Shown: piece after piece, positions 7,894-24,157 of the stretch
How positions within the stretch are numbered: the stretch's first letter is position 1
Layout: every line of letters starts with the position of its first letter
Virus record (IMG/VR): IMGVR_UViG_3300028886_000034
Coordinates: 220,120 to 284,119 of that record
Direction: 5' to 3' (one strand)
Length of the DNA: 64,000 nucleotides
DNA from: a virus
Lineage: Duplodnaviria > Heunggongvirae > Uroviricota > Caudoviricetes
The notes under the pieces: generated by a model
What the model was told of the DNA's origin: nothing
The model's input: the letters and a program-made list of their open reading frames with translations, nothing else
The model's database searches: none
Position numbers and translations under genes: made by a program

Positions 7894-8358
7894 ATGAGAT
7901 TCTATTCAATGGCTACTTATAAAAAAACAGAAGAATCATTAGCTAAGGCTATTAAGGACTATATTATACCTAGTACTACAGGTAATGATGGAAAGGTATT
8001 AACTACTGTAGATGGTAAAACTATATCTTGGGAAAATGTAGATTCTTTTCCAGCACAATCAGAAGCAACTAAAAATAAAGTTTTAGTTAGTACAGGATCC
8101 AATGGAGTTGCTTGGAAATCTATTAAGATGGAAAGTTTTCTTTTTTATGGTTCTGAAGATATAGATGGAACTACAATAGATACTACTGACCATAATATAG
8201 AAGATTTTATTGAGATGACAATATTTAAGGATGGTTTAAGATTGAATGAAGGTATTGATAATGATTATACTTATGATAGTCTTACTAAAGTAATTACCTT
8301 TACAACACCATTCTTAGAATCTGATATTTTTGTTATAAATTACTTAACCTTTAACTAA
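7894..8358 (+). CDS. virion structural protein (tail fibre-associated)
   Basis: PS..GNDGKVL...G...W repeats and FKDGLRL..G..NDY.Y....ITF domain shared with the fibre proteins. Confidence 0.7.
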   Translation: MRFYSMATYKKTEESLAKAIKDYIIPSTTGNDGKVLTTVDGKTISWENVDSFPAQSEATKNKVLVSTGSNGVAWKSIKMESFLFYGSEDIDGTTIDTTDHNIEDFIEMTIFKDGLRLNEGIDNDYTYDSLTKVITFTTPFLESDIFVINYLTFN

Positions 8359-8376
8359 TATAGGAGGTGGTGTATT

Positions 8377-11300
8377 TTGATTGAGAAGCATAACTTATTA
8401 GATACTGCAATTACTAAAGACTTCCATGAAAGAATTTTAACTATAGATGATACTAACGATACTGCTGTATTAAACAAATTACCTGTAGCTAATGAATATG
8501 GTTACTTAGACAATTCTTGGTTACAGGATTATTCTAGTTATAAGATTATAGACTTAGGTAAAGTAAGTTCAGACTATATGACTTCTTTAAATGAAACTGA
8601 GTATATAATTGTTATGACATTAGATAGCCCTAGTTTAGATGTATTATTATTTGGAGCTTCAAAGAACACCCCCTATAATAGGGCATTAGTTTATAGGTTC
8701 TTAATATTTAATCCTAATGGCTATACACTAAATTGGATTTCAAATGTAGAAGATTCAACTATTATTTGGAATACCTATTCTGAAACTGCGCCCACTTTAG
8801 ATAAAAATGGAACTTATGTAGAATTTATTAGCACTGATGATGGTAAAACTTGGTATGGTAATTCTTCTGCAAGAACTGCTTATGATATAGTCAATAACTA
8901 TTATACTAAGACTGAATCTGATGATAGATTTGTTAATGTTACTGGAGATACTATGACTGGTACATTAACTATCGAAGGATCTCACAATAGTGCTACTAGT
9001 AGAGGGCTTATTATTAAAGGTGATAATCAGAGTCATGCATTTATGGTTCAGGATACTAGCTTTAATAAAGGAACAGCTCCAGATAGTTATAAAACTGTTG
9101 AAGGTGTTGTTACTTTTGCAAATAATGGTCAATTAGGTTCTTTATATAGTTATGTTACACCACAGAACAAAAATAGCACTGTATTGAGAGCACACTCTAC
9201 ATTAAATAATGATAGTAATGATAATAATTACATTGCAGTTAGTATTGAATCCGATGGGTCTAAATCTACCTATGCCTTTACCCCAGCTACCGATGATAGA
9301 TCAAATAATATTGCCACTACCGAATTCGTAGGAAATCATTTTGATACCTATGTTGAGCATTGGTTAGTTCCAGATATGACTAGTACTACTAATGCTAAAA
9401 TATTATCAAATGATGGATATGATTCAGTATGGGTTGACTATAAAAAATTAAGATATGTTTATTATCCAAGTACTTCTACTACTGCAATTACAGTTCCAGC
9501 ATCTTATAGAACTGATGCAGTTATAACTGAAGTTTATAGAGATGGTGTTTTATTAACTGAATCTGATGACTATGTATTAGATCAAAGTACTGGTAGAATT
9601 ACTTTTAAAGATATTATTTTCAGTAATGAAAAGATTATAGTTACTACTGAAACGGCTGTTAAGGCACATAGTAATTCTGTTTATGATAATGTTACTATTA
9701 CTAATTCTTCAGCATCTACTCCAGATGTATCTGATAATAGTAGTAAAATTGCTACTACAGCTTATGTTAATAATTTAATTTCAGCTTTAAATATTGAATC
9801 TGGCTCTGGATCAGGGTCAAGTTCTGGTTCTATTTCGACAGTATCTCCTCATTTTACTGGAGTTCCTACTGCACCCACCGCAGCTGTTGGATCTAATACT
9901 AATCAGATTGCGACTACTGCGTTTGTTAATAAGGCTATTGAAGAATACGCTCTTAACGCATTTGATTCGATTACTATTACTGGTGTATCAACTGCTCCTA
10001 CAGCTAATGTTGGTACTAATACAGAGCAAATTGCTAATACTGCGTTTGTAACTAGAGCAATTAATAATGTTATAGATAATGCTCCAAGCTCATTAAATAC
10101 TTTAAATAAATTAGCAAATGCTATTGGTAATGATCCTTCATTTGCTAGTACAATAAATACCTCTTTAGCTGGTAAACTTAACACTGGAATTACTACAGAA
10201 GGCTCAGGCAATGCTATTACAAGTATTACTGAAGATTCTTCTGGTAATGTTACAGCACATAAAGGACTTACATTTAGTTTATCAAGTCATACACATGATA
10301 ATGATTATATGCCAAAGTTAACTGATTCTATTGGATCAAGTAATACGCCAGTTTATGTTAATAATAGTGGTTCTTTAGAAGCTTTTGATATTTCTTTAGG
10401 TAGCGATATTAAACATGTGTATTTCAATAATGGTAGTGTTACTGAATCTACTGCAATGGTAGGCAGTGATACTTCACCAATTTATATTAATAATGGAGAA
10501 TTTACAGTTTCAAATGCTACAGTAGGTAGTAATGATACTCCAATTTATTTTGATAATGGAGTTATTACGAGTACCAACAAAAGCTTTAGTGATTATTTAC
10601 CATTAGCCGGTGGAACTCTTAATGGTGAACTTACATTAAATGATGGATTAATTATTAATGACAATGATACGGACACACAATTAATATTCAATAGTGATAG
10701 TATCCAAGCTGTATCTGGTGGAAATAATTCTGATTTATATCTTAATGAAGATGGTGGAGCGGTGCATATTGGAAGTCAAGATAATGCAGAAGTTACTATT
10801 GAAAATGGAGTTATAACCGCCTCTTCATTTGTAGGTAATATTGATGGCACTTCTGAAAAAGCTTCTATGGATTCAGAGGGTAATGTTATTTCAACTACTT
10901 ATGCACCTTTAGTATCACCAGTATTAACTGGAACACCCACAGCACCTACTCCTGGAGCTGGAGATAACTCGTCTAAAATTGCTACCACTGCTTATGTTGA
11001 TTCAGCTATAAATGCTTATTTGGATGATATAAATGAATTTAAAATTAGTTCAATTCATTATCCTAATACTGGAGATACAACTATTACATTAACTGAATCA
11101 CAATCTATTCCCAATAATGTTGCTAAATACGCTATAGCAGTTTATAGAGATGGCATCTATTTAAACTCTGATGTAGATTATGTATTTGACCACGAAACGA
11201 ATACATTTACTTTTTTAAAAGAATTTGGCCTTGATGAAATAGTTAGTATACTCTTTACATATATGAGTAACGATACTCAGCCTACTATAGATATTGATGT

Positions 11301-11808
11301 AGATGAATATGAAGCTGGCTCTAATATTACTTTTACTAAAAATCCAACTACTAATAAAATAACAATTAGTGCAGCTAATCCAGATTTAAGTAATTATGTA
11401 ACTAGTGCAGATTTAAGTGGATATGCTTTAGCTAATCATACCCACAGTGAATATGCTACTCACGCTGATGTTAATAATAGATTTGGAATTGCAGTTGAAA
11501 AAGTAAATACTTTAACTTCTTCATCATCTATTACTATTGATCCTACTCAAGGGTCTATATTTACTTTAACTTTAGACACTAATACAACTATAAGTCTTAG
11601 CTCTATTAGTAATGGGTATTATACTACTAATGGCTCTTGCATTACTCTTATGATGCCAAGCAATAGTTATACAGTATCTTGGAGTAGTAATATTACTTGG
11701 ATTGATGGCGCTGCTCCAGACTTAAGTACTGGATACAATATAATTACATTTATTACACCTAATGGGGGCATCACATGGTATGGTGATGCCTTACAAATTG
11801 AATCTTAA
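8377..11808 (+). CDS. long tail fibre protein
   Basis: Repeated SPxxTGxPTAPT...IATTAFV, APSSLNTLNKLANAIGNDPSFA and LPLAGGT motifs; TTG start 9 nt after GGAGG. Confidence 0.85.
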   Translation: MIEKHNLLDTAITKDFHERILTIDDTNDTAVLNKLPVANEYGYLDNSWLQDYSSYKIIDLGKVSSDYMTSLNETEYIIVMTLDSPSLDVLLFGASKNTPYNRALVYRFLIFNPNGYTLNWISNVEDSTIIWNTYSETAPTLDKNGTYVEFISTDDGKTWYGNSSARTAYDIVNNYYTKTESDDRFVNVTGDTMTGTLTIEGSHNSATSRGLIIKGDNQSHAFMVQDTSFNKGTAPDSYKTVEGVVTFANNGQLGSLYSYVTPQNKNSTVLRAHSTLNNDSNDNNYIAVSIESDGSKSTYAFTPATDDRSNNIATTEFVGNHFDTYVEHWLVPDMTSTTNAKILSNDGYDSVWVDYKKLRYVYYPSTSTTAITVPASYRTDAVITEVYRDGVLLTESDDYVLDQSTGRITFKDIIFSNEKIIVTTETAVKAHSNSVYDNVTITNSSASTPDVSDNSSKIATTAYVNNLISALNIESGSGSGSSSGSISTVSPHFTGVPTAPTAAVGSNTNQIATTAFVNKAIEEYALNAFDSITITGVSTAPTANVGTNTEQIANTAFVTRAINNVIDNAPSSLNTLNKLANAIGNDPSFASTINTSLAGKLNTGITTEGSGNAITSITEDSSGNVTAHKGLTFSLSSHTHDNDYMPKLTDSIGSSNTPVYVNNSGSLEAFDISLGSDIKHVYFNNGSVTESTAMVGSDTSPIYINNGEFTVSNATVGSNDTPIYFDNGVITSTNKSFSDYLPLAGGTLNGELTLNDGLIINDNDTDTQLIFNSDSIQAVSGGNNSDLYLNEDGGAVHIGSQDNAEVTIENGVITASSFVGNIDGTSEKASMDSEGNVISTTYAPLVSPVLTGTPTAPTPGAGDNSSKIATTAYVDSAINAYLDDINEFKISSIHYPNTGDTTITLTESQSIPNNVAKYAIAVYRDGIYLNSDVDYVFDHETNTFTFLKEFGLDEIVSILFTYMSNDTQPTIDIDVDEYEAGSNITFTKNPTTNKITISAANPDLSNYVTSADLSGYALANHTHSEYATHADVNNRFGIAVEKVNTLTSSSSITIDPTQGSIFTLTLDTNTTISLSSISNGYYTTNGSCITLMMPSNSYTVSWSSNITWIDGAAPDLSTGYNIITFITPNGGITWYGDALQIES

Positions 11809-11828
11809 AGAAAGGATAGGTGAAAGCA

Positions 11829-13175
11829 TTGGCTAATCAAAAAACTAGGGTCGCTTTAGAAATGATTGACCCTAAACCTATGTCTGAAGAAGATATTGTA
11901 AATAATTATGCTCCTTTAAGCTCACCTGCTCTTACTGGAACTCCGACTGCTCCTACTGCTAATCAAAATAATAATTCTGATCAAATTGCTACAACTAAGT
12001 TTGTAAAAACTGCTGTTTCTGATTTAATTAACTCTGCTCCTTCTACTTTAGATACTTTAAATGAATTAGCAACCGCTTTAGGTAATGACCCCGATTTTGC
12101 TACTACAGTATCTAATCAGATTGGACAAAAGTTAGATACTAATAGTGCTAATTATGTTAAATCCTTAAGTATTAATGGAAGGAATATTACTGTAACTAAA
12201 GGTAATAATACTACCCAAACATTAACTACTCAGGATACTCATTATACCGCTAATTTAGTTGTAGGTACTTCTAATACCTCTACTGCTAATGCCACCACTA
12301 CTAATAACAATACTTATTTAAATACTGTTGAAAATGGATCTAAAAGTGGATCTGTAAAAATTACTGGATCAGGCGCTACTACAGTTTCTGCCGCTGGTGG
12401 TACCGTCACTATTAATAGCTCAGATACACATTCTACAACTCATCTATATGCAGGTAGTGGTTCAAATTCTAATGCTGCAACTACTAATGGTAATACCAAA
12501 TTAACTGTAACTGATAATTCTACAGTTAGAAATTCTATTACTATTAAAGGTACTGGAGCAACTACTGTAACTTCTAATGCAAGTGGTGTAGTTACTATCA
12601 ATAGTACTAATACTGTATATACCCACCCAGCTTATACAGCGAGAACTGGTAAGCCTACTGCAAATGCTACTCCAGCTTTTGGTGGTACTTTTACTATATC
12701 TCAAATTACTAGCGATGCTACTGGTCATGTTACTAATGCTACTGATAGAACAGTTAAAATTCCTAGTACTTTATCATCTACTTCAGCAGCAGGACTTTTA
12801 CCTAAATTAGATGGTAGTACTACCAAGTATTTAAGAGCAGATGGCACTTGGCAAATTCCTCCAAAACCAACTTCTGTAGATACTGCAACTAAATTAGCTA
12901 CAGCTAGAACTATAGCAATTCGAAACTGGACTGCATCTTGGAAAAATGGCGCTAGCGTAAATACAAGTACTACATCAGCTTCAACTACTTTTGACGGATC
13001 TGGAAATGCATATTTAGATATCGGGTGTAAATCAGGTTGTTCCGGAAGTTGTATTTCTTCATGTAGCGCAAATTGTAGTTCTGGATGTTCAGGGTCATGT
13101 AGTTATGATTGCGGCGGTTCTTGCGGAAGTAGCTGTAGTGGTAACTCTAGTGGGGATTGCTGCGATGGTAATTAA
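11829..13175 (+). CDS. tail fibre protein with C-terminal CXXX-repeat Cys-rich peptide
   Basis: SPALTGTPTAPT, APSTLDTLNELATALGNDPDFATT, TATKLATARTI..FDGSGN fibre motifs; ends CKSGCSGSCISSCSANCSSGCSGSCSYDCGGSCGSSCSGNSSGDCCDGN; TTG 11829 fits the SD better than GTG 11820. Confidence 0.85.
   Translation: MANQKTRVALEMIDPKPMSEEDIVNNYAPLSSPALTGTPTAPTANQNNNSDQIATTKFVKTAVSDLINSAPSTLDTLNELATALGNDPDFATTVSNQIGQKLDTNSANYVKSLSINGRNITVTKGNNTTQTLTTQDTHYTANLVVGTSNTSTANATTTNNNTYLNTVENGSKSGSVKITGSGATTVSAAGGTVTINSSDTHSTTHLYAGSGSNSNAATTNGNTKLTVTDNSTVRNSITIKGTGATTVTSNASGVVTINSTNTVYTHPAYTARTGKPTANATPAFGGTFTISQITSDATGHVTNATDRTVKIPSTLSSTSAAGLLPKLDGSTTKYLRADGTWQIPPKPTSVDTATKLATARTIAIRNWTASWKNGASVNTSTTSASTTFDGSGNAYLDIGCKSGCSGSCISSCSANCSSGCSGSCSYDCGGSCGSSCSGNSSGDCCDGN
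13026..13172 (+). repeat. CXXX peptide repeat (10 Cys at 4-residue period plus terminal CC)
   Basis: Read directly from the translation; no other Cys seen in the preceding ~400 aa. Confidence 0.95.
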
Positions 13176-13228
13176 TTTATTGGGAGGTGACTATATCGTA
13201 GCTGTCTAACCGATTGCTATGTTAAATT

Positions 13229-13954
13229 ATGATCGAAAATTTTATTTTTACGCCAATTAGTAAAACTACTGAAGGGGTTAAACTCGCTCTACAGAATGGT
13301 ACAGCTTTAATAACTAACCGAGAACTTTTTAGCATTGATTGGAATAATTTCAATGAAATAGTCCCCGGGATATTTGTCGATAAGGACTTAATAAATGATT
13401 TTACTCCAGAGTATTTTAATACTTCTATAGTTGGTAAAAAGGCTGCTGCTCCACATAACGCATTATATATTGGCCTTCCATGTAATAATAAGATAAAAGT
13501 CTATGAGCCTGATGTAGAATTTTATGGCAAAGACAACACTTTATATAGAGAGTCAAATCTTGTATATCATAAAATAGATTTTGATACAGAAACAACTATT
13601 GGTGAGTTATATAAAAATGCTTGGAAGTATTCATATACTAAAACTTGGTATTCTAAATTAAGTGAAAAGAAAAGTTTACAGCAGCTTTTGAAGCCACTTT
13701 TAGCTAAAAAGATATTTAGACTGTATGGGTATCCTTCCGACAGATTAGCTGATTATGGAAGAATTATACTTTTCTTATTATCAAAAGTTTCTTTAACCGA
13801 TGATGAAAGGGATAAATTAAGTGTTTTACTAGATAATGCACCATCTATCGACGATATCTCTGATGTAATTGATAGAGAGTCTGGATTACAAAGCTTTGTA
13901 AATAAAGTTAAAGAAGATCCCTTAACATTTCTTAATAATGGATTTGTTGACTAA
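13229..13954 (+). CDS. hypothetical protein, possible accessory factor of the radical SAM system
   Basis: 241-aa ORF between the Cys-tipped fibre and the rSAM gene; no recognisable motif. Confidence 0.75.
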   Translation: MIENFIFTPISKTTEGVKLALQNGTALITNRELFSIDWNNFNEIVPGIFVDKDLINDFTPEYFNTSIVGKKAAAPHNALYIGLPCNNKIKVYEPDVEFYGKDNTLYRESNLVYHKIDFDTETTIGELYKNAWKYSYTKTWYSKLSEKKSLQQLLKPLLAKKIFRLYGYPSDRLADYGRIILFLLSKVSLTDDERDKLSVLLDNAPSIDDISDVIDRESGLQSFVNKVKEDPLTFLNNGFVD

Positions 13955-13971
13955 AAGAAAGGACGATTTGA

Positions 13972-16032
13972 TTGAAGCAATACGATGCTTTAAATTTTGT
14001 AAGTGATAATACCTTAGTAATATATGTAACTGGTAAATGTAACTTTAACTGTTCATTTTGTCAAAATAACTTCTTTATGCCTGAAGTAGATAACTGGACT
14101 CACGAATCTACTGTAAAGCTTAAAGAAGTTCTAACAGATATCCATTTTAGTAAAGTTTGTTTAAGTGGAGGAGAACCTACACTTAATGTAGATTCGTTTA
14201 AAGAAATTATATCAACTATACGAGAAATTAGTCCAGATTCTAAAATTGTCACACATACAAATGGAAGTATGCTTGACGACGATTTAGTTAAGTTTTGTGA
14301 AGATAATGAGGTATATTTAAATATCTCTGTAAGATTAAAAGGAGAAAAGGATCTTGATAATCTTATTAAGCATTCTAAGGTTAAAGATCGTATAGTTAAA
14401 TTAATTAAAAATATTAAAAATAAGGCAATTGCTTTTGTCTTTAATAAGGGAGAAGAATTTGCATCTGAGGCGATTTTATTGCATGAAATGTTTGATGCAA
14501 ATATTAGATTAGTAAGTAACAACCAAGAATGGAATACTTATACAGATAACGAAGTAGCCTGGATGGAATCAGAATGGAACAAAATTAAAGAGTATGATCC
14601 GGAAGCATTTGATACCTGGTGCTTAATTACTCAATTTAGTTATAAAGAACGAAGTGTATCATACTTTTATCAATTAAAAGGTAATAAATTGTTCAAAGTT
14701 CATGATTATCCATATAGTGAAAATGAACAATACATCCGTAAGATGGAACCTAATATGAAACGAAAGTTAGATTGGACTGCTAGCAAATTTATTCCAGACA
14801 ATTTACATAAGGCAATTCTTACTAATATTGAAAGTAAAAATTATATGATTATGACCGGTTTAGATTGTAATCTAAGATGTAAATACTGTTACGAGCATAG
14901 TAAAGAACCTACATCTAAGGCGGACATTCAAAAAGCTAAAATATTTTTAGATAATGTGTTTGAAAGGGATTTTGGTTCTCCTAATAGTAATAAGTTTGTT
15001 CATATAGTGTTAGATTTTATTGGTGGAGAACCTACCTTACACCCACAATTTATTGAAGAATGTATTGATTATGCACTAACTCTTTTTAAAAAGTATCAGG
15101 TATTTAAAATGGGTGTGACTTTCTCTACTAATGGTACATTATTTTTTACTGAAGGAATGAAACATCTTTTAGATAAATACGGCTATATGTTACACATAGG
15201 ATTTAGTATAGATGGTATTAAAGAGGTACATGATGCAGCTAGAGTTGATATAAATGGAAACGGGACATATGATAGAGCTGTTGAAGGATTAAGATACATT
15301 CAAAAGAATTATCCATATATTCCAGTTTCAGTTAAGGCCACATTTACACATCAAACCATGCGTCAATATGGAGATTCTATTATAAATCTTATACAGCTTG
15401 GCTTTAAACATATTGCTGCGAATGTTGTATTTGAAGAAACCTTTACTGATGAGGACACAGAAATATTACTGCCAGAATTTGCGAAAATTGTTGATTATAT
15501 GGTAGATAACGACTTATATGAGACAGTAGAATTTTTTCAATTAGACAACTTTAGAGTGCCTCCTTTAAGTTATACTCCAGTAAACGAATATACTAAAGAA
15601 AGTAACTGGTGTGGAGCTGGAACATATATTAATTGCCTTGGAACTGACGGTAAAGTATACCCGTGTATGCGATTCTGTACTATGACTAATCCATTAAATA
15701 TGGGGTATATTGATGTAGAAAACAAAACCATAGTTAGGGAAAATCAAGAGTTATTTGATGATATAAAATCTCAGTATAAAAGATGGCCCGAAGAATGTTT
15801 AAAATGCCCCATATTAAACCATTGTTCTTCCTGTGCTGCATTGCCATATGAAACATTCCCAAATGATAAGAATGCCGTTGAAAAGTACTTTAATTTAAAA
15901 AGACGATGCGGATGGGCTAATGCTATAGTAAGTGCTAGAGTATACTTTGCTGAAAGAGTTAGGGCTTTAAATGGTCTCCCACCTTTAATGATTTATCCAG
16001 ATGAACAAGATACTAGTGCTATTACTGATTAA
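13972..16032 (+). CDS. tandem radical SAM protein with C-terminal SPASM domain (CXXX-repeat peptide maturase-like)
   Basis: Two CxxxCxxC motifs (CNFNCSFC, CNLRCKYC), each followed by GGEP and TNG; SIDG; SPASM-type CGAG..DGKVYPC..CLKC.....CSSC..C. Confidence 0.9.
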   Translation: MKQYDALNFVSDNTLVIYVTGKCNFNCSFCQNNFFMPEVDNWTHESTVKLKEVLTDIHFSKVCLSGGEPTLNVDSFKEIISTIREISPDSKIVTHTNGSMLDDDLVKFCEDNEVYLNISVRLKGEKDLDNLIKHSKVKDRIVKLIKNIKNKAIAFVFNKGEEFASEAILLHEMFDANIRLVSNNQEWNTYTDNEVAWMESEWNKIKEYDPEAFDTWCLITQFSYKERSVSYFYQLKGNKLFKVHDYPYSENEQYIRKMEPNMKRKLDWTASKFIPDNLHKAILTNIESKNYMIMTGLDCNLRCKYCYEHSKEPTSKADIQKAKIFLDNVFERDFGSPNSNKFVHIVLDFIGGEPTLHPQFIEECIDYALTLFKKYQVFKMGVTFSTNGTLFFTEGMKHLLDKYGYMLHIGFSIDGIKEVHDAARVDINGNGTYDRAVEGLRYIQKNYPYIPVSVKATFTHQTMRQYGDSIINLIQLGFKHIAANVVFEETFTDEDTEILLPEFAKIVDYMVDNDLYETVEFFQLDNFRVPPLSYTPVNEYTKESNWCGAGTYINCLGTDGKVYPCMRFCTMTNPLNMGYIDVENKTIVRENQELFDDIKSQYKRWPEECLKCPILNHCSSCAALPYETFPNDKNAVEKYFNLKRRCGWANAIVSARVYFAERVRALNGLPPLMIYPDEQDTSAITD

Positions 16033-16072
16033 AAGTAGTAGCACTTCACATTTTATAAAGGAGGTGTAACAT

Positions 16073-18544
16073 TTGCCTGAACAGAAATCAAATCATATCT
16101 ATTCAAATAATCCTAGTATAATAGAACCTATATATCCTAAAGAAGAACTTATATCTGATGAATATGTGCAGAATATCTTGACCTCTGATATGGTAGCTGA
16201 CCTACCAACTCCATATAAGATTCCTGTATCAAATGCACAAGGTAAAATTGATCCTAACTGGTTATCAGATAATATTGCAACAACTACTTTACCGGTAGCT
16301 TCAGATGATATTGCAGGAGATAAAGATAATAATACAACCGTTATGACTCCTCATAGTACTTATATAAGTATTACGAAGAATGTTAAGGATGCATCTACTA
16401 CTCAAAAGGGAATAGTTCAATTAACTTCTAGATTAGATTCAGCAACTTTATTAAAAGATGATCTGGCAATTACACCTAAAGCATTAAAAGAGTATTTAAA
16501 TGACGGGTTTGCAATAGCTGATTATTCAGTTCCAGGTATTACTAAATTTGCTGAAATATCTACTCTTAATGCCGCTTTAAGTGCATCTAAAACATCTACT
16601 AATTCTGCATTAAGATCTAATGAGAATTATAGTAAATTAGCTGTAAACCCATATACATTATACAGGTATATTTCAGACAATAACCTTACCTTAAATAGTG
16701 ATGCAAATATTATCTTTAGAAAAAGAACTGAAAATGGTTCTTCTGCTACTTCGGAAGATATTGCTAAAATTACTGTAAATAGACCGGCTTCTTCTACAAG
16801 TACTTCTGCATTAAAAGCTACAGTTAAAAATAAAACCGCTACTCTTTTAAGCGTAAGTAGTGATGGAAATACTGTTAGTTCAAGTTTTCCCGGAACAGTT
16901 ACAGTAGATAATATTAAAATTGGTTCTACGGATATTGGTTCAAACAGTATCCCAGTCTATATTAAAAAAGGTGTAATATCGCCATGTACTGATATTGTAT
17001 CATCAATACAAAGTGCTATTGATAATGCCCCGTACTTACCATTGGCTGGTGGAACTGTAACAGGACAAATAACTATAAATGGTACTCATAATGGCTTAAA
17101 TAAAAGAGCTATTTTAATCACTGGTAATAATCAAAGTCATGCATTTGCTGTTCAAGATACTGGTTTAACTAAAGGTACTGCACCCTCTTCAACAAGAACT
17201 ATTGAAGGTGTCGCTATGTATGGAAATGAAATGGATAGCAGTAATAAGCTTATTTCTGATTTCTATACTACAGTTGATGCTAGTAATACTACTAAAACTA
17301 TTCTTAAAGCATTTAACGTATCTACTGCAACTAATCAAACTGGGTCTTCTTTAACATTAGTTGCTCAATCAGATGGAGCCAATTATGCTTCATTAAGTCA
17401 AACACCAGCTACTACAGATAACTCTACTAAAATTGCTACTACTGCGTATGTTAAAAATAATTTAAGTAATTATTTGCCTTTAGCTGGAGGTACAATAACT
17501 GGAGCCATTTATAACAAAGATACTGGAGCTACAAAAGGAACAAAACCAACTTCAAATAGATGGCAGTTGAATTATATGTATACCGATAAGAATAACGTTC
17601 TTTTTGGCGGGATGGAAAGAGGATATCTCTCAGACGGAACTAATAGAATAAATATGATCGTATACCCGGGCACAACTAATAATACGGACACCAATGCACA
17701 AATTGGAGTCGGGTTTGATGGAAGTGGAAATTGGTTTACATATGCCCCAACTCCAGCAACTTCAGATGCTTCTACTAAAATAGCAACTACTGCATTTGTT
17801 AAAGCACAAGGGTATATACCGAGATATACAAATGTAAGCGAAATGGGTAGATATATAGATATGCACTATGATAATTCTACTGCAAAATACGATTATGATG
17901 TTAGACTCTATGTTAATTCACAAGGTACTGCTGCTGGTAACGGCGAACTTAAGATCGCTGCATCTAAGGTTACTGCTGGGACTTTTTCTGGTAACTTAAC
18001 TGGTAATGTTAGTGGTACTTCATCTAATGTCACAGGAGTTGTTGCCATCAGACATGGTGGTACTGGAGCTACATCTAGAACCGCTGCAGTAAGGGCCTTA
18101 TTTGATGAAGGCGTAGAAGGAAGCGCAACACATCTTTTAGGAATTACTTCTGATTGGAGTAAATGCGGATATGTTTATAGAGATTCACTTAAATCTATTT
18201 TAGGCTTAGGGAATTATGCCACTACAGATTTTGTAAGATCTATGTTAAACACCCTATCAAATACTAGCAGTATTAACATTAATATTAATGGAGTGCTATT
18301 ACAGGGCGGTTTTAAGAAAGGCTCTGGATGGACTAATATACCTACGCCTATATCATCTTATATAACTGTAATAGCTACAAGTAGATCTAATGTAGGTAGA
18401 TGGGATAAGGGTGGGTGTACTATTACTGAAATACTTCAAAATTCCGAGGGGAAATATTATCAATTTTACATATGCTGCGATCGTTATCAATCAGGTAGCC
18501 CATTTGATTGGGGTGCTTTCTGGTTAATTTTAGGCAGAGTTTAA
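16073..18544 (+). CDS. tail fibre protein
   Basis: ASTTQKGIVQL, LPLAGGT x2, TPAT.D.STKIATTAxV, GGTGAT; gp53-like C-terminus (LLQGG...FWLILG). Confidence 0.85.
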   Translation: MPEQKSNHIYSNNPSIIEPIYPKEELISDEYVQNILTSDMVADLPTPYKIPVSNAQGKIDPNWLSDNIATTTLPVASDDIAGDKDNNTTVMTPHSTYISITKNVKDASTTQKGIVQLTSRLDSATLLKDDLAITPKALKEYLNDGFAIADYSVPGITKFAEISTLNAALSASKTSTNSALRSNENYSKLAVNPYTLYRYISDNNLTLNSDANIIFRKRTENGSSATSEDIAKITVNRPASSTSTSALKATVKNKTATLLSVSSDGNTVSSSFPGTVTVDNIKIGSTDIGSNSIPVYIKKGVISPCTDIVSSIQSAIDNAPYLPLAGGTVTGQITINGTHNGLNKRAILITGNNQSHAFAVQDTGLTKGTAPSSTRTIEGVAMYGNEMDSSNKLISDFYTTVDASNTTKTILKAFNVSTATNQTGSSLTLVAQSDGANYASLSQTPATTDNSTKIATTAYVKNNLSNYLPLAGGTITGAIYNKDTGATKGTKPTSNRWQLNYMYTDKNNVLFGGMERGYLSDGTNRINMIVYPGTTNNTDTNAQIGVGFDGSGNWFTYAPTPATSDASTKIATTAFVKAQGYIPRYTNVSEMGRYIDMHYDNSTAKYDYDVRLYVNSQGTAAGNGELKIAASKVTAGTFSGNLTGNVSGTSSNVTGVVAIRHGGTGATSRTAAVRALFDEGVEGSATHLLGITSDWSKCGYVYRDSLKSILGLGNYATTDFVRSMLNTLSNTSSINININGVLLQGGFKKGSGWTNIPTPISSYITVIATSRSNVGRWDKGGCTITEILQNSEGKYYQFYICCDRYQSGSPFDWGAFWLILGRV

Positions 18545-18559
18545 AGGAGGTGACATCAA

Positions 18560-21388
18560 ATAGCTTTAATACCAAAATATAAAAAAGACAAGTCTTCTTG
18601 GAAACATCTTTTATCAGAAGCATATTTAGAAAAAGTTTTAACAGATGAAGATGTTATAAAAGAAGCAGAAGATCCAGGTACTGGTAGAAGTAATTATACT
18701 TATACTAATGGAGACTTGGATAATAAAGTAGTGATAACCAATGATTCAGGATTAGTAGATTATTCTTTAATAGATATGACAGTTCAGGGTGGAGAAGGTT
18801 ATGATAATTTATTAGTATCTACTAATGAGAATGGTTTAATAGACTATTCATTAATAGATATGACAACAGGAAAAGCGGCTAATAAATTAGTTAAGACATT
18901 AAGCTCAGGATTAATTAACATTAATCTTTTACCTGCTTCAACTACAGGAGCAGTTAATACTATACCTAAAACAACTTCATCTAGTTCAGTATTAAGTAAT
19001 ACTTGGTTAGACAAAACAGACGGTACTGATAATAATTTAGATAAAAATAAAGTAGTTGTAACTGATTCTAATAAACAGATTAATAATAACTTATTGAATG
19101 CTACAGATGGTTCGTCTACTACTTTAGCCAATAATAAAGATAAAGTTGTTAAAACTAATTCGGAAGGCAAAATTAGTTATAACTTAATTAAAAATACTTC
19201 TGCTGGTGGCAGTAGTAATGCTAATACTTTAGTTAAATTAGATGCTAATGGGCTATTAGATTCAAGTTTATTTAGATCAAATCAGTTTTTACCATTAACT
19301 GGTGGTATTACTACTGGTAATATCATCATTAATGGTGCTTCACCAGCATCTTCTACTGTATCTTCAATAAATAGTACTACAGCGACTTTTACTGGCATAG
19401 ATAACTTAAAAGCATCAATGCCATATTTTACTGGTATTAGTGGTAATAGTTATTCAGATGGATTCCTTTTAGGAATGAATGGAAGCAGTAATACCAATAA
19501 TTATTTGATGTTAGCTACTTATGATGAAGGTACTGAGCCTATCTATGTCAGGCAGTATATTGGTAATCCAGGTTATACCGGTTTAACTCAAAAAAATTCT
19601 ATTACTTTAATGGATAAAGATGGATATACTTCGGTAAATAGATTAACCGTTACAAGCGACATTGTTAGCTCTAATGGAGGTTTGCGTGTTGCAAATGATA
19701 TAACTTCAACTGCAGGCAACTTATCTATTAATGGCTCATCACACTTAAATGGGCCTGTTAGAATTGAAGATGATTTAGTTGTAGCTAAAAATTTAGATCT
19801 AGTAGACGGTAATATTATAATTAATTCTAATACATCATATCCATCAGATCCAGTCAATCAAACAAAACTTGCAGAAGAATTACCTAACTTTTCAGGGTTT
19901 AGTAGCTGCGCGTATACTGATGGATGCTTAATTGGGATGAATTTAGATGAAAACGCTGTTGAAGATACCGATACATATCTTTTAATTGCTACTTACGATA
20001 ATGGTAATGAGCCGATTATATTCAGACAATATCAATCGTGGAATAAAACTGGCGATTCTAAACAACATTTTAATAGCGGCAATATCCAACATGAACTAAC
20101 ATTAATGGATAAAGCTGGAAATACAACATTAAATGGTTTAACTGTTTCAGGTATCACTACGTTAAATGATAGGCTAATTGCTAATAAGGGTATAAACATC
20201 CCAGTTACTGGAGATAAGATAGGAAATTCTTCTAATGATGCAAATGCTCCATTAATTATTGGAAGTCAATCCGGCCTCCACTTATCATTTGATGAAAATG
20301 AAATTAGTGCCAGATCTAATGGTACTGGTGGTTCTAGCTCCCTAAATCTTAATCCAGATGGTGGATCCGTTGTTATAGGGAGCAATCAAGCAGCAACTAA
20401 TAATGCGCCATTTACAGTATTTGGTGAAATTACTGCTAATAATGGTTTAGTTGTTAATAATTCTCCAATAACAATTACTACAGGACAAACTGCTGAGTTA
20501 ACTAGTGGTAAAGTTATCACACAGATTGAAGGATATTCCGGAGGCAATGATTGCTGGAGAATTGGATCTGGAACTGTTCCTTATACCACATCTGGTTCAG
20601 ATACGGGATATGGGTTCGTTGAACTTGCCGTTTCTGACGATGGCGCAGAAGACATCTATGTAAGGCAATATGGCGGTGGGCAAGTTAAAAATTGGGATTC
20701 CGCTACTATCAAAAATACTTTAACACTTCTTGACCGCTCCGGTAATACGGGGATACCACACAACTTAACGGTTGGGGGAACGTTAACTGTAAGTAGTACT
20801 GGCAATTCTTCTTTTGCTGGAAAAGTTACTACTGGTTCTTTTAAGACTGGTGCTATTGAAAGTTCAAGTATTACTAATACTGGTGCATTAGTTAACAATG
20901 GTTCAGTTTCTGTGGGTGGAGCATTAACTGTTAACAATAACATTACCGCTAATAATAAAACTGTAACAGCTGGAAATTTTAATGGTAAATGGTCTGGGTT
21001 TACACAGCAAATAAGCACGAAACCGCCAATAGCTAACGATACTTGGATTCTACTTAATAATAATTCTAATATTCAGCACACCACTGTAGGAGATATCGCT
21101 AACGTTATAAAAGATACCGTTGGAGTTTCCGATTCCGGCACATATTATACAAAACTCAGTAACGGTTTAAAAATACAATGGGGATCCGGGATTGAGAAAG
21201 GATCTGACCAAATAATTTCCTTCCCTATCGCATTTCTCAATACGAACTATCAAGTAGTAATTTCTGCTACTGCATCATATGGTGGCGCAGACCCGACATA
21301 TGTTAAATCGAAAACAACTACTGGGTTTTACGCAAGTAACGATTATTGGGACAATATGCGCATCTATTGGATTGCAGTTGGGTATTAG
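18560..21388 (+). CDS. tail fibre protein; probable AUA start 52 codons upstream of the tracked ORF
   Basis: AAGGAGGTGA then in-frame ATA GCT TTA; three ATYDxGxEPIxxRQY..LTLMDxxG repeats; C-terminal KIQWG..FPIAF..YWIAVGY domain. Confidence 0.8.
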   Translation: MALIPKYKKDKSSWKHLLSEAYLEKVLTDEDVIKEAEDPGTGRSNYTYTNGDLDNKVVITNDSGLVDYSLIDMTVQGGEGYDNLLVSTNENGLIDYSLIDMTTGKAANKLVKTLSSGLININLLPASTTGAVNTIPKTTSSSSVLSNTWLDKTDGTDNNLDKNKVVVTDSNKQINNNLLNATDGSSTTLANNKDKVVKTNSEGKISYNLIKNTSAGGSSNANTLVKLDANGLLDSSLFRSNQFLPLTGGITTGNIIINGASPASSTVSSINSTTATFTGIDNLKASMPYFTGISGNSYSDGFLLGMNGSSNTNNYLMLATYDEGTEPIYVRQYIGNPGYTGLTQKNSITLMDKDGYTSVNRLTVTSDIVSSNGGLRVANDITSTAGNLSINGSSHLNGPVRIEDDLVVAKNLDLVDGNIIINSNTSYPSDPVNQTKLAEELPNFSGFSSCAYTDGCLIGMNLDENAVEDTDTYLLIATYDNGNEPIIFRQYQSWNKTGDSKQHFNSGNIQHELTLMDKAGNTTLNGLTVSGITTLNDRLIANKGINIPVTGDKIGNSSNDANAPLIIGSQSGLHLSFDENEISARSNGTGGSSSLNLNPDGGSVVIGSNQAATNNAPFTVFGEITANNGLVVNNSPITITTGQTAELTSGKVITQIEGYSGGNDCWRIGSGTVPYTTSGSDTGYGFVELAVSDDGAEDIYVRQYGGGQVKNWDSATIKNTLTLLDRSGNTGIPHNLTVGGTLTVSSTGNSSFAGKVTTGSFKTGAIESSSITNTGALVNNGSVSVGGALTVNNNITANNKTVTAGNFNGKWSGFTQQISTKPPIANDTWILLNNNSNIQHTTVGDIANVIKDTVGVSDSGTYYTKLSNGLKIQWGSGIEKGSDQIISFPIAFLNTNYQVVISATASYGGADPTYVKSKTTTGFYASNDYWDNMRIYWIAVGY

Positions 21389-21403
21389 GTTTGGTGATAA
21401 CAA

Positions 21404-22162
21404 ATGGCATTAACTATAAATCAAACACATCCTCCAGTAGAACTTTGTTTGGATGAAACATATATTCGAAAGATACTTACTATTGAAAATACAGAAGGAA
21501 CAATTGGAGAAACGCCTTATCAATTAGTTCATACTGATTCACATAGTAAAGTACCTTTAGAGTATTTTAATACTACAAGTTCTAAAAAAGTTATTAGTTC
21601 GAGTGCTACACCATATTTAGTAACATTAACATCACAGAATAATACAGTACAGCCAGATCCATTATTAAAAGGAACATTAGATAGATCTATTTTAGGCACT
21701 TATAATAACTATAAGGGCAGTTTATTAGCAATGACTTTAGAAAATGGTTCAGAGGTATTACCAGCTATGTTACGGTCATCACAAACTGCTATGCAGAATA
21801 GACTAGTTACTACTAAAGAAAATTCTACTAAAATAGATAATAATTGGTTAAATGGTACTGTAGGTACTGGAGCATCATATTCATCTGATGATAATAAAGT
21901 AGTCTTTACTAGAACTAATAATACAATAGACCCAGCATTATTAAATATTCAAAGATTTTCTACAAGAATAACATCAAACATATCTGTCTATACATTAAGT
22001 ACAAGTGATTTTACAATGCCATCTAGTTTACAGAATTTATTTGTATATGAAAATGGATTGTTATTGTCACCAGATTTTGACTATTCAGTATCTAATAATA
22101 CAATTAATTTTACAGAAACAGTTGTATCTGGAACAATACTACAGTTTATAGCAATTGTTTAA
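21404..22162 (+). CDS. short fibre-related structural protein
   Basis: Shares the fibre N-terminal motif (ETYIRKILT) and the VYENGLLL..DFDY...TINF domain. Confidence 0.7.
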   Translation: MALTINQTHPPVELCLDETYIRKILTIENTEGTIGETPYQLVHTDSHSKVPLEYFNTTSSKKVISSSATPYLVTLTSQNNTVQPDPLLKGTLDRSILGTYNNYKGSLLAMTLENGSEVLPAMLRSSQTAMQNRLVTTKENSTKIDNNWLNGTVGTGASYSSDDNKVVFTRTNNTIDPALLNIQRFSTRITSNISVYTLSTSDFTMPSSLQNLFVYENGLLLSPDFDYSVSNNTINFTETVVSGTILQFIAIV

Positions 22163-22222
22163 TAAAATATTTCGAACAAATAATGAAAACTAGAATAGGT
22201 GTAGATAAGGAGGTGATTGAGA

Positions 22223-24157
22223 ATATCATATAGATATGGTGGAGTTAAAAAAGTAACAGAGCATATAGTTGATGCTGAAAATGAAACTTATTATGATAAG
22301 TTTGCAAAAACAACATCAGATCAAGTTATAGTTAATAAGGTTCAAGATACTAGGTTAGATGTAGTTTTAAAAGATTTAGAAACCAGAATTTCTGGAGATT
22401 CAAGTGTACCATCACAGGTAGGGAATTCTGGAAAATTCTTATCAACTAATGGTTCGACATTAGAATGGAGAGTCATAGATGCTTTACCAAGTCAAACTAA
22501 TAATGCAGATAAAGTACTTTCTACAAATGGTTCATCTGCATATTGGGCAGTACCATTAAAACTTACATCTACAATATATCCAGCAGTATCAGATAATAAG
22601 CTTGGTTCCTATGGAGTGAGTTCGGAGGCAGCCAGAGCCGATCATAAGCATCCATTACCAGTTTATTTTATTGAATCTTATATGACTGCTATAGGTGGAG
22701 AAACAGAAATAACTTTAACTGAAGAGCAATACCCTTCAAATAACAGACCTACTGGTTTTCATCTTTATAGAAATGGACTTCTACTTTCTCCTACTACAGA
22801 CTATACATTTGATTCTGTAAATAAGAGAATAACCTTTTCTAAAGCTTGCGCAGCTAAAGAAAACATCATTATAGTATTAGGATATTTATTAGGTGACAGT
22901 AATATTTCAGTAGGTGGAAATAGTATAAATATTTCAGATGTTTTAAATGCTATCTTAGATACAGAAGTAGTTCCTTTAATGGATGGAGAAGCTGCTATAG
23001 GTACTTCAGAAAAAGTAGCTAGAGAAGATCATAAGCATCCATCAGATACTTCTAAAGCTAATATTAATTCACCTTTATTTACTGGAACACCTAGGATTTT
23101 AATTAATCCAACAGTTAATACTAATGACAATTCTATAGCTACAACTAAGTTTGTTAATGATCAAATTAATACTAAGTTATTAAACATTATTCCAGCTCAG
23201 TCAGAATCTACTGCTGGTAAAGTTTTAGCGTCTGATGGAAGCAGAGTATTCTGGAAAACTGATCAAGACAGCCAAGAACTTCCTCAAATAGAATATGCAG
23301 ATATTGGAAAATTCCTTATAGCCAATACAGAAGGATTACCTGAATGGGTAGAATTAAGTCAGGAAATACCAGATTCAACTGAATCTGAAATAGGATCTGT
23401 ATTAACATTAGATAGTAATAAGAATCCTGTTTGGAGTGTAGTTCCAAATGAAATACCTGAGATTAATGATGATACTTCTAATAAGATATTAAGCAATAAT
23501 GGAGCTAATTTAACTTGGGTTAATAATGAGCATATAATATTGTCTAATCTTAATCCAAGAATGAATTCCAATAGAGCATATCCTGGAGTTTTAAATGAGG
23601 CTGCCAGAATAGATCATGAGCATGAACATGACAATACTAAGGCTGATATAGATTCTCCAATATTTACAGGAGATCCTCAATCACCTACCCCATTGACTAG
23701 TAATAATTCAACTTCAATAGCTACTACAGCTTTTGTAAATAATTTAGTTTCTAGAGAGATTTCTAGAGTTGAAACAGCTAATAATAATTATATATTACAG
23801 AACAGCTCAACTCTATTTACTCTTCAGAATATCAACGAGAAATTACAAGACCTGGGAAATCTTGATTCAAATATAGATAATCTTACAATAGATTTTAGTT
23901 TAGGTAATCATGCCTTAGTAATGCTTAATAATGACATTTCATTCAGTTTCACTATTAATAGCATAGCAAATAGTAACTTTAGAAAAGTTAGTTTAACTCT
24001 TTATAATGCAAATCAATATATGATTGAATGGCCTGAAAATGTCCATTGGGATGGCATATATGCTCCTATGATTGAAACTGTAATGACTACTATTGAGTTT
24101 ATTACTTTTAATAATGGCGGAGATTGGTATGGAAAAGTTTGGGGTAACTTTAATTAA
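22223..24157 (+). CDS. tail fibre-like structural protein; probable AUA start
   Basis: PSQ.GNSGKFLSTNG...W repeats, ARxDHxH x3, SPxFTGxP..IATT repeats; ATA 22223 lies 9 nt after GGAGG whereas TTG 22217 is only 3 nt away. Confidence 0.8.
   Translation: MSYRYGGVKKVTEHIVDAENETYYDKFAKTTSDQVIVNKVQDTRLDVVLKDLETRISGDSSVPSQVGNSGKFLSTNGSTLEWRVIDALPSQTNNADKVLSTNGSSAYWAVPLKLTSTIYPAVSDNKLGSYGVSSEAARADHKHPLPVYFIESYMTAIGGETEITLTEEQYPSNNRPTGFHLYRNGLLLSPTTDYTFDSVNKRITFSKACAAKENIIIVLGYLLGDSNISVGGNSINISDVLNAILDTEVVPLMDGEAAIGTSEKVAREDHKHPSDTSKANINSPLFTGTPRILINPTVNTNDNSIATTKFVNDQINTKLLNIIPAQSESTAGKVLASDGSRVFWKTDQDSQELPQIEYADIGKFLIANTEGLPEWVELSQEIPDSTESEIGSVLTLDSNKNPVWSVVPNEIPEINDDTSNKILSNNGANLTWVNNEHIILSNLNPRMNSNRAYPGVLNEAARIDHEHEHDNTKADIDSPIFTGDPQSPTPLTSNNSTSIATTAFVNNLVSREISRVETANNNYILQNSSTLFTLQNINEKLQDLGNLDSNIDNLTIDFSLGNHALVMLNNDISFSFTINSIANSNFRKVSLTLYNANQYMIEWPENVHWDGIYAPMIETVMTTIEFITFNNGGDWYGKVWGNFN

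Follow-up and report, generated by a model that had tools for sequence, protein, structure and literature searches.

A phage tail-fibre-like protein with a cysteine ladder encoded beside a predicted radical SAM/SPASM maturase

In the described systems closest to the one reported here, radical S-adenosylmethionine (SAM) enzymes act on cysteines of peptides or proteins. PapB, of the PapB/PapA (freyrasin) system, joins a cysteine to the carbon beside a carboxylate four residues on and requires Asp, Glu or a terminal carboxylate next to the acceptor carbon (PMC9413430, PMC12373016; papers are cited throughout from portions of their text). CrpC places thioethers on the Cys-rich C-terminal region of CrpA, a 29-kDa protein of Methanococcus voltae, and in QhpD/QhpC thioether cross-links shape a structural protein subunit (PMC13692751). 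Families TIGR04115 (enzyme), TIGR04116 (helper), TIGR04119 and TIGR04114/04117/04118 (targets) make up a CXXX-repeat system whose Ser/Gly-rich target carries a cysteine at every fourth residue. The TIGR04115 accession led to one open-access paper, on the pig microbiome. Searches of the open-access literature turned up no description of a radical SAM peptide cross-linker maturing a virion protein; the word 'phage' is absent from the available text of the CrpC paper and three supplements (PMC13692751), and the available part of another paper mentions a phage radical SAM maturase merely as an antibiotic-synthesis gene (PMC12801897). Here we analyse a 64,000-nucleotide stretch (the window; positions 220,120 to 284,119 of IMG/VR record IMGVR_UViG_3300028886_000034, Caudoviricetes) in which three consecutive open reading frames (ORFs) on the same strand, amid further fibre-like ORFs, encode a 448-residue fibre-like protein ending in a cysteine ladder, a 241-residue helper and a 686-residue radical SAM protein. 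The feature is confirmed and its interpretation as fibre-tip modification is supported; we put at roughly 55% the probability that the radical SAM/SPASM enzyme would thioether-staple a fibre tip retained on the virion.

The locus shares traits with each of these systems and departs from each of them. The four-residue cysteine period and Ser/Gly-rich composition of its ladder are those of TIGR04115-system targets, and TIGR04115 is both the best family match of the enzyme's C-terminal domain and present in its sister clade. However, that match, at 190.8 bits, stays below the cut-off of 350, the cassette shows no match to either TIGR04116 or TIGR04119 and has an unrelated 241-residue helper instead, and the window adds an extra radical SAM domain and a target fused to a phage fibre. 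PapB (150 bits, cut-off 340) and CteB of the SCIFF system are the closest characterised enzymes, and the distance spanned by the PapB link equals the period of the window ladder (PMC9413430). By contrast, PapB and CteB substrates are short free precursors, SCIFF-type loci lie apart from the window clade in our tree, and at position +4, where PapB would find its acceptor, the window ladder has Cys, with acidic residues rare. CrpC (family TIGR04463) likewise is a seven-Cys SPASM enzyme with a protein rather than a short peptide as target, but it is archaeal and cellular, acts on a 17-residue repeat and bears a recognition element for peptides made on the ribosome and modified after translation (RiPPs; PMC13692751); against the TIGR04463 model the window enzyme scores 60.8 bits (cut-off 525). 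QhpD/QhpC differs in making Cys-Asp/Glu links in an enzyme subunit, and the window enzyme scores 89.7 bits against a QhpD cut-off of 453. The cassette would work like a thioether RiPP system, while falling outside TIGR04115 and PapB by their cut-offs.

The ladder-bearing fibre-like protein

The initial annotation, made from the letters of the window alone, described a protein with fibre motifs and some 400 residues free of cysteine, a terminal 12-Cys tip with a four-residue period, and co-oriented genes for a 241-residue protein and a radical SAM/SPASM enzyme inside a fibre cluster, and all of this holds. Cysteines are absent from the first 399 residues and then stand at positions 400, 404, 408, 412, 416, 420, 424, 428, 432, 436, 444 and 445, so that ten keep the strict period, Ser fills the eleventh slot in register, and CC follows. 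A ribosome-binding motif lies 7 nt upstream of the TTG start codon, and two orthologous proteins, P0122 and P0125, start at this position too. PHROG tail-fibre families are matched by the N-terminal part, most strongly phrog_2631 over residues 14–107 (E 2.7e-32), and the 21 PHROG families matched at E ≤ 0.01 are mostly tail fibre, in keeping with the gene's place in a fibre cluster. The ladder itself matches phrog_6085 (E 2.7e-7) and reaches only 9.2 bits with the TIGR04114 target model (cut-off 20). A single-chain structural model of the tip was not confident (mean predicted local distance difference test score, pLDDT, 43.5) and was not used.

The genome is complete, its 284,119 bases forming one virus record that ends in direct terminal repeats, and among its ORFs with a start codon and at least 30 residues this ladder is the only one. 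Because no other ladder ORF is present in a complete genome, there is no free precursor that could serve as the enzyme's substrate. A stop-to-stop scan of all six frames for at least four cysteines at period 4 returned 2 of 6,458 segments, namely this tip and a 31-residue segment.

The stretch that follows the fibre stop (window positions 13176–13231) has features of its own. It holds a strong ribosome-binding motif (13183–13190) with no ordinary start codon behind it, and in the fibre frame one further C-X3-C and then a stop that overlaps the helper ATG; an eroded extension of the ladder or a tiny coupled ORF is possible there. The related protein P0127 terminates at the same motif, which rules out read-through of the stop.

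A tandem radical SAM protein and its helper

The 686-residue protein carries two radical SAM domains in tandem, with CX3CX2C motifs at residues 23 and 299. The radical SAM/SPASM enzyme noted in the initial annotation is therefore present, and a second, N-terminal radical SAM domain had been overlooked. In the profile search proposed at the same time, TIGR04115, the CXXX-repeat maturase family, was the top match, below its cut-off, and the Pfam SPASM score of 18.2 fell short of the cut-off of 21.5. The C-terminal domain matches radical SAM family PF04055 at 99.5 bits and has the CX3CX2C, GGE and barrel motifs. In an alignment of this domain with 27 of 120 listed homologues, the seven SPASM cysteines (residues 547, 565, 609, 612, 618, 621 and 646), which would serve two auxiliary clusters, are invariant in 28 of 28 sequences, as are the SAM-binding motifs, and these cysteines align to the C-terminal region of CteB. 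CteB is also the closest solved structure (E 6e-27), followed by a sulfatase maturase (E 3e-12). Homologues of about 380–400 residues begin at the barrel, which bears on the question of a RiPP recognition element. The N-terminal domain belongs to no clear family, with best NCBIfam scores of at most 56 bits, and is fused in the same way in five homologous proteins (P0001–P0005).

By profile, the helper family occurs at 15 of 259 loci (duplicates included), every time directly before a radical SAM gene. A profile comparison with the roughly 95-residue helpers of the sister group gave a probability of 0.2%, and the two are unrelated. The sole fold match is a homologue in Erwinia phage Asesino (E 5e-8); a structural model (pLDDT 75.9) found no match in the PDB with Foldseek and only generic helical matches with VIA-align (best Z 5.3). 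Two Atlas searches yielded no family of use. Searches of cultured phages by tblastn with the helper and with the tip, run with the low-complexity filter on, returned no match. Single-protein scans of viral contigs with the enzyme and with the helper found nothing, and a helper-driven locus scan recovered two loci that were already in the set.

Co-occurrence of ladder and enzyme

A survey of co-occurrence had been suggested from the start, and it separates close from distant relatives of the enzyme. We scored 98 loci with a profile of the enzyme alignment, six duplicates and loci matching at most 230 profile positions having been removed, and counted a CXXX ORF when it lay within 4.5 kb of the enzyme. 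Such an ORF is present at 25 of the 27 loci scoring at least 175 bits and at none of the 66 scoring 125–164 bits, three of which hold six-cysteine peptides visible under a looser threshold. One of the two exceptions among the 27 starts inside the helper gene (L014) and the other shows no CXXX ORF (L018); of the five weakest-scoring loci, three carry another type of repeat, CxC, and one is a doubtful match. In a control set of 78 viral loci picked by a shared fibre-shaft motif alone, of which 39 span at least 11 kb and the others are shorter, neither ladder (0/78) nor enzyme (0/78) was found, and on loci chosen as positives the ladder detector found 15 of 16.

A scan driven by the tip gave the enzyme at five of five loci (two being the query seeds), and tips lacking a radical SAM neighbour, which would have spoken against the initial annotation, were not seen among them. 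Nor does the enzyme cluster with non-peptide enzymes, the other outcome then considered unfavourable; it groups with CXXX-repeat peptide maturases. As both tests came out favourably, the pairing of substrate and enzyme is well supported, and sequence comparison makes the ladder the likely substrate of the adjacent radical SAM/SPASM enzyme. Chance proximity, with the ladder a low-complexity tail or a row of plain disulfides and the enzyme acting elsewhere, is very improbable: it must contend with the counts of 25/27 against 0/66 and 0/78 and with a gene order of ladder, helper and enzyme that is conserved across unrelated tail types.

In a tree of 42 rows the window domain falls in a nine-row clade (support 100/100) with L001, L003, L004, L005, L014, L015, L097 and L098, of which L001, L097 and L098 are close kin and are counted as one lineage. 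The sister group of 18 rows (97/93) holds members above the TIGR04115 cut-off; loci that pass it include L099 (554.9 bits), L105 (440.2) and L096 (416.4). All nine clade loci carry the 241-residue helper family, and eight show a CXXX protein just upstream, fused to a fibre-like protein or, in SPN3US-like jumbo phages, encoded by a free gene behind virion genes. The neighbouring genes include central fibre J (L003 and L015), tail collar and fibre assembly genes (L004), and baseplate wedge and sheath genes (L005). Ladder, helper and enzyme recur together in the tail modules of phages that are unrelated. Tail or fibre PHROGs are matched by the ladder proteins of three of these loci (L003, L004 and L005). 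At a threshold of 1e-6 the L015 ladder protein matches no PHROG, but it shares the neck, the segment that precedes the ladder in the window protein. Five loci (L001, L005, L015, L097 and L098) encode the N-terminal radical SAM domain as a gene of its own, and it is missing in L003, L004 and L014/L020, so a second radical SAM domain is present at six of the nine clade loci. Being absent or separate in relatives, it is optional.

Three loci of the sister clade (L099, L102 and L106) are cellular clusters with a 700-residue enzyme, small free peptides and transporter-like genes. The cellular CXXX clusters are nested among phage-tail lineages in both trees, a placement that is not established, as a single phage-type clade is not rejected (approximately unbiased test on 24 rows, p-AU 0.179).

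Fibre tips as putative exchangeable modules

Searched by profile, 1.84 billion proteins gave 78 matches, most with the neck repeat alone. Besides the window protein, those that end in neck plus ladder are P0126, P0127, P0128, P0129, P0150, P0164, P0196 and P0201. One of them, P0127, resembles the 823-residue fibre protein encoded downstream (54% over 313 and 60% over 164 residues), yet bears the tip of the 448-residue fibre. P0122 is identical to the window protein at 328 of 347 shaft positions (95%, residues 1–350), compared with 34 of 53 in the neck and 23 of 38 in the ladder, where the cysteine period is kept. In P0125 a shaft identical at 317 of 347 positions (91%) ends in a different tip with five cysteines, a short Cys/Asp/Tyr segment with two C-X3-C units that may be the target of another maturase. 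Locus scans with P0125 and P0196 as queries found no locus.

The shafts ahead of the conserved neck and ladder range from 267 to 873 residues, and ladders from about 5 to over 100 cysteines. Ladders of such varied size bear on whether the cysteines bind metal. Metal-bound fibre and spike tips are known, and regularly spaced cysteines with small spacers would suit thiolate coordination, so that thiolates of three chains along the fibre axis could form a metal or iron–sulfur rod, with helper and enzyme loading it or editing a few sites. CrpA, a modified Cys-rich protein, is itself a suspected metal binder (PMC13692751). We regard such a rod as quite unlikely, in that the size range is better explained by a unit reaction that repeats than by a defined cluster site, and the enzyme retains all its motifs for SAM cleavage and clusters with peptide maturases. 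Cross-linking and metal binding are compatible, not mutually exclusive.

Of 15 fused tips, 12 have a cysteine three or four residues ahead of the final residue, compared with 1 of 14 targets outside this enzyme clade. This hints at processing anchored at the C terminus; the terminal reaction of PapB is known only for D- or beta-residues, and the parallel is loose.

Relatives in cultured phages

Searching phage records by tblastn with the enzyme gave matches in 85, mostly SPN3US-like, two of them recorded on Escherichia coli. In SPN3US itself (L001 7097–8126) three free CXXX genes, encoding 130, 134 and 68 residues, follow gp167. The annotation lacks all three and places gp166, in a different frame, over the second. 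Like the window, this region (gp165–gp163; phrog_6085, phrog_8030, phrog_1802) has a homologue of the helper (E 4.7e-12 against the helper profile), the two radical SAM domains and, behind virion genes that are fibre candidates, CXXX targets; it differs in that the targets are free, the enzymes are two separate proteins, and the annotation is hypothetical or radical SAM only. The cassette sits directly behind gp170–gp167, which are among 86 SPN3US virion proteins, and of these gp168–170 are baseplate or fibre candidates (PMC5694885) and gp168 a tail protein (PMC5105663). All of gp161–gp166, including helper gp165 and enzymes gp163/164, are absent from that published list (PMC5694885), an absence that fits a role of helper and enzymes as assembly factors; the list is silent on the ladder proteins. 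In the searchable portions of two SPN3US papers, a term search found no mention of gp163–gp166 or of radical SAM (PMC5694885, PMC5105663). The SPN3US leaders open with heptad-like stretches and might cap the coiled-coil virion protein gp167 as a set of three chains.

Free precursors with leaders of 45–50 residues thus occur in the window's own enzyme clade, and the cellular CXXX systems resemble ordinary RiPP clusters, as would be expected if the ladder were a RiPP core that is cut off, or free in SPN3US-like phages, and acts off the particle as a toxin, signal or anti-defence peptide with the fibre as its leader or carrier. Yet no peptidase or exporter gene is seen in the window cassette, the ladder is fused behind a conserved neck on shafts of very different length, and the free forms also lie directly behind virion fibre genes. 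We consider release decidedly improbable, and a cleavable toxin is the least supported of the roles proposed for the tip.

Predicted chemistry and its alternatives

The predicted chemistry, virion location and function come from sequence analysis. In the reading that we favour, the enzyme would turn the ladder cysteines into a row of thioether cross-links, giving the completed virion a fibre tip that is rigid and cannot be reduced. By analogy with PapB, CteB and CrpC, a ladder thiol may bind the open site of an auxiliary cluster, a 5′-deoxyadenosyl radical would take hydrogen from a residue three or four on, and a C–S bond would follow. Across 181 four-residue units in 19 proteins of this type, the P-numbered ones among them taken without gene context, the residue before each cysteine is Gly (34%), Ser (31%), Thr (18%), Asn (8%), Ala (4%) or Asp (3%). 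Rarity of acidic residues in the spacers excludes a PapB-type acidic acceptor, and frequent Gly before Cys makes a uniform beta-carbon link at +3 impossible. As the spacers are nearly free of Asp and Glu and Gly precedes Cys in one unit of three, we expect the acceptor to be either the next Cys itself or, at +3, the small residue's alpha carbon. The 241-residue protein may stay off the virion and serve as a chaperone or in presenting the substrate, with the N-terminal radical SAM domain as an optional partner; the tip may be a variable, exchangeable, host-facing module. Virion location and host contact we infer from the fusion, the gene position and the exchange of tips.

The same ladder on the virion could be modified by other means, for example if Cys were oxidised to an aldehyde, as anaerobic sulfatase maturases do, if one of the two radical SAM domains epimerised residues to the D form, or if sulfur were lost. 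In favour of such chemistry are the absence of a conserved acidic acceptor, a second radical SAM domain of no clear family at six of the nine clade loci, and a sulfatase maturase as the second structural relative by sequence. It is unlikely, as all top family matches are maturases that cross-link cysteines or act on Cys-rich peptides, and L003, L004 and L014/L020 keep the ladder without the second domain. The target motif of sulfatase maturases is CxPxR, and the tip does not contain it.

Several observations weigh against thioether stapling of a virion tip. The enzyme lies under the curated cut-offs of TIGR04115, PapB and the Pfam SPASM domain, and the PapB-type Cys-X3-Asp/Glu motif is absent, with Cys at +4 and Asp in only 3% of units at +3. 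Some CXXX systems of the sister clade (L099, L102 and L106) lie in cellular loci beside ABC-transporter-like genes, and the enzyme family is therefore not confined to virions. The near-identical shaft of P0125 ends in another tip, so the fibre does not depend on this ladder. The C terminus would be the distal end of the fibre by general knowledge of fibres. Finally, the accessible text of the published SPN3US virion list includes no ladder protein, the peptides being unannotated or called in another frame (PMC5694885).

A wider scheme, which we hold tentatively and at slightly below even odds, is that unrelated phages make fibre tips by RiPP-type chemistry. A dedicated enzyme lineage would work along the ladder from the C terminus, joining each Cys sulfur to a carbon three or four residues on, possibly that of the next Cys, to give a continuous thioether-stitched rod that contacts the host; the kit of tip and enzyme would pass from fibre to fibre and from phage to phage as receptor-binding modules do, with cellular CXXX RiPP clusters perhaps its domesticated offshoots. 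If stapling of the tip is true, a virus uses chemistry to harden its own attachment fibre at the tip, which would add a new class of fibre tip and of host-recognition chemistry, and an uncharacterised enzyme family gains its first substrate and role. Since Asp/Glu acceptors of the usual kind are absent, the linkage may also prove to be new. The same cassette occurs in cultured SPN3US-like phages, which makes this reading directly testable.

Gene layout and other cysteine-rich systems

The features of the locus are collected in Table 1.

Table 1. Coordinates of the ladder, helper and enzyme genes and of flanking fibre genes in the window
Feature	Position	Strand	Basis or remark
Upstream fibre-like protein, 1143 aa (context)	8377..11808	+	PHROG tail-fibre matches, best E 6.7e-45
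Fibre-like protein with cysteine ladder, 448 aa, predicted substrate	11829..13175	+	start TTG 11829; orthologues P0122, P0125
Fibre 'neck' before ladder, travels with ladder between fibres	12885..13025	+	alignment; neck and ladder also on P0126–P0129 and others
CXXX ladder, 12 Cys, ten at strict 4-residue period, Ser/Gly-rich	13026..13163	+	ends 3–4 residues short of C terminus
241-aa helper, phrog_8030 family	13229..13954	+	seen only beside this enzyme clade
N-terminal radical SAM domain of 686-aa protein	13972..14790	+	CX3CX2C at residue 23; no SPASM cysteines
C-terminal radical SAM/SPASM domain, predicted maturase	14791..16032	+	CX3CX2C at residue 299; seven invariant Cys
Downstream fibre-like protein, 823 aa	16073..18544	+	orthologue P0127 bears same neck and ladder

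Sequencing runs that contain the window DNA are labelled bovine gut metagenome. Contigs from three of three RNA-library runs span positions 11500–16500 with zero differences; these runs are possibly the source of this DNA, and their contigs are no proof of transcription. Over the tip, helper and enzyme, cover by related cattle-gut contigs falls, and these contigs are fragmentary, so absence is not demonstrable from them.

Several loci gathered in the survey hold other cysteine-rich proteins. Three large phage contigs (L009 9143–9954, L010 9174–10322 and L011 9122–10266) have three to seven radical SAM genes and CxC-type repeat proteins. In L009 the ORF after the CxC-repeat protein matches Peptidase_S74 above its cut-off, and several CxC proteins of these contigs end in a short motif that we take to resemble the start of an intramolecular chaperone; they would provide a second, independent link of Cys-rich targets with trimeric fibre parts. 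Two in-frame TGA codons break the CXXX gene of L096 (5500–6546), which suggests TGA recoding in this phage. In Candidatus Margulisiibacteriota, proteins of 495–667 residues with 79–122 cysteines (L116 3886–5874, L118 5426–7429, L120 5647–7632 and L132 2988–4475) adjoin enzymes grouping with a viral enzyme (L007); near those of L116 and L120 no tail genes are evident. A 208-kb viral contig (L012 5852–6226) encodes, among four radical SAM genes, a 124-residue protein ending in C-H-S-N repeats. Judged by printed sequence ends only, the window's own genome holds a second cluster of fibre-like ORFs (G000:C1 183000–198000) in addition to that in the window (7894–24157), and the two clusters suggest an unusually large fibre repertoire.

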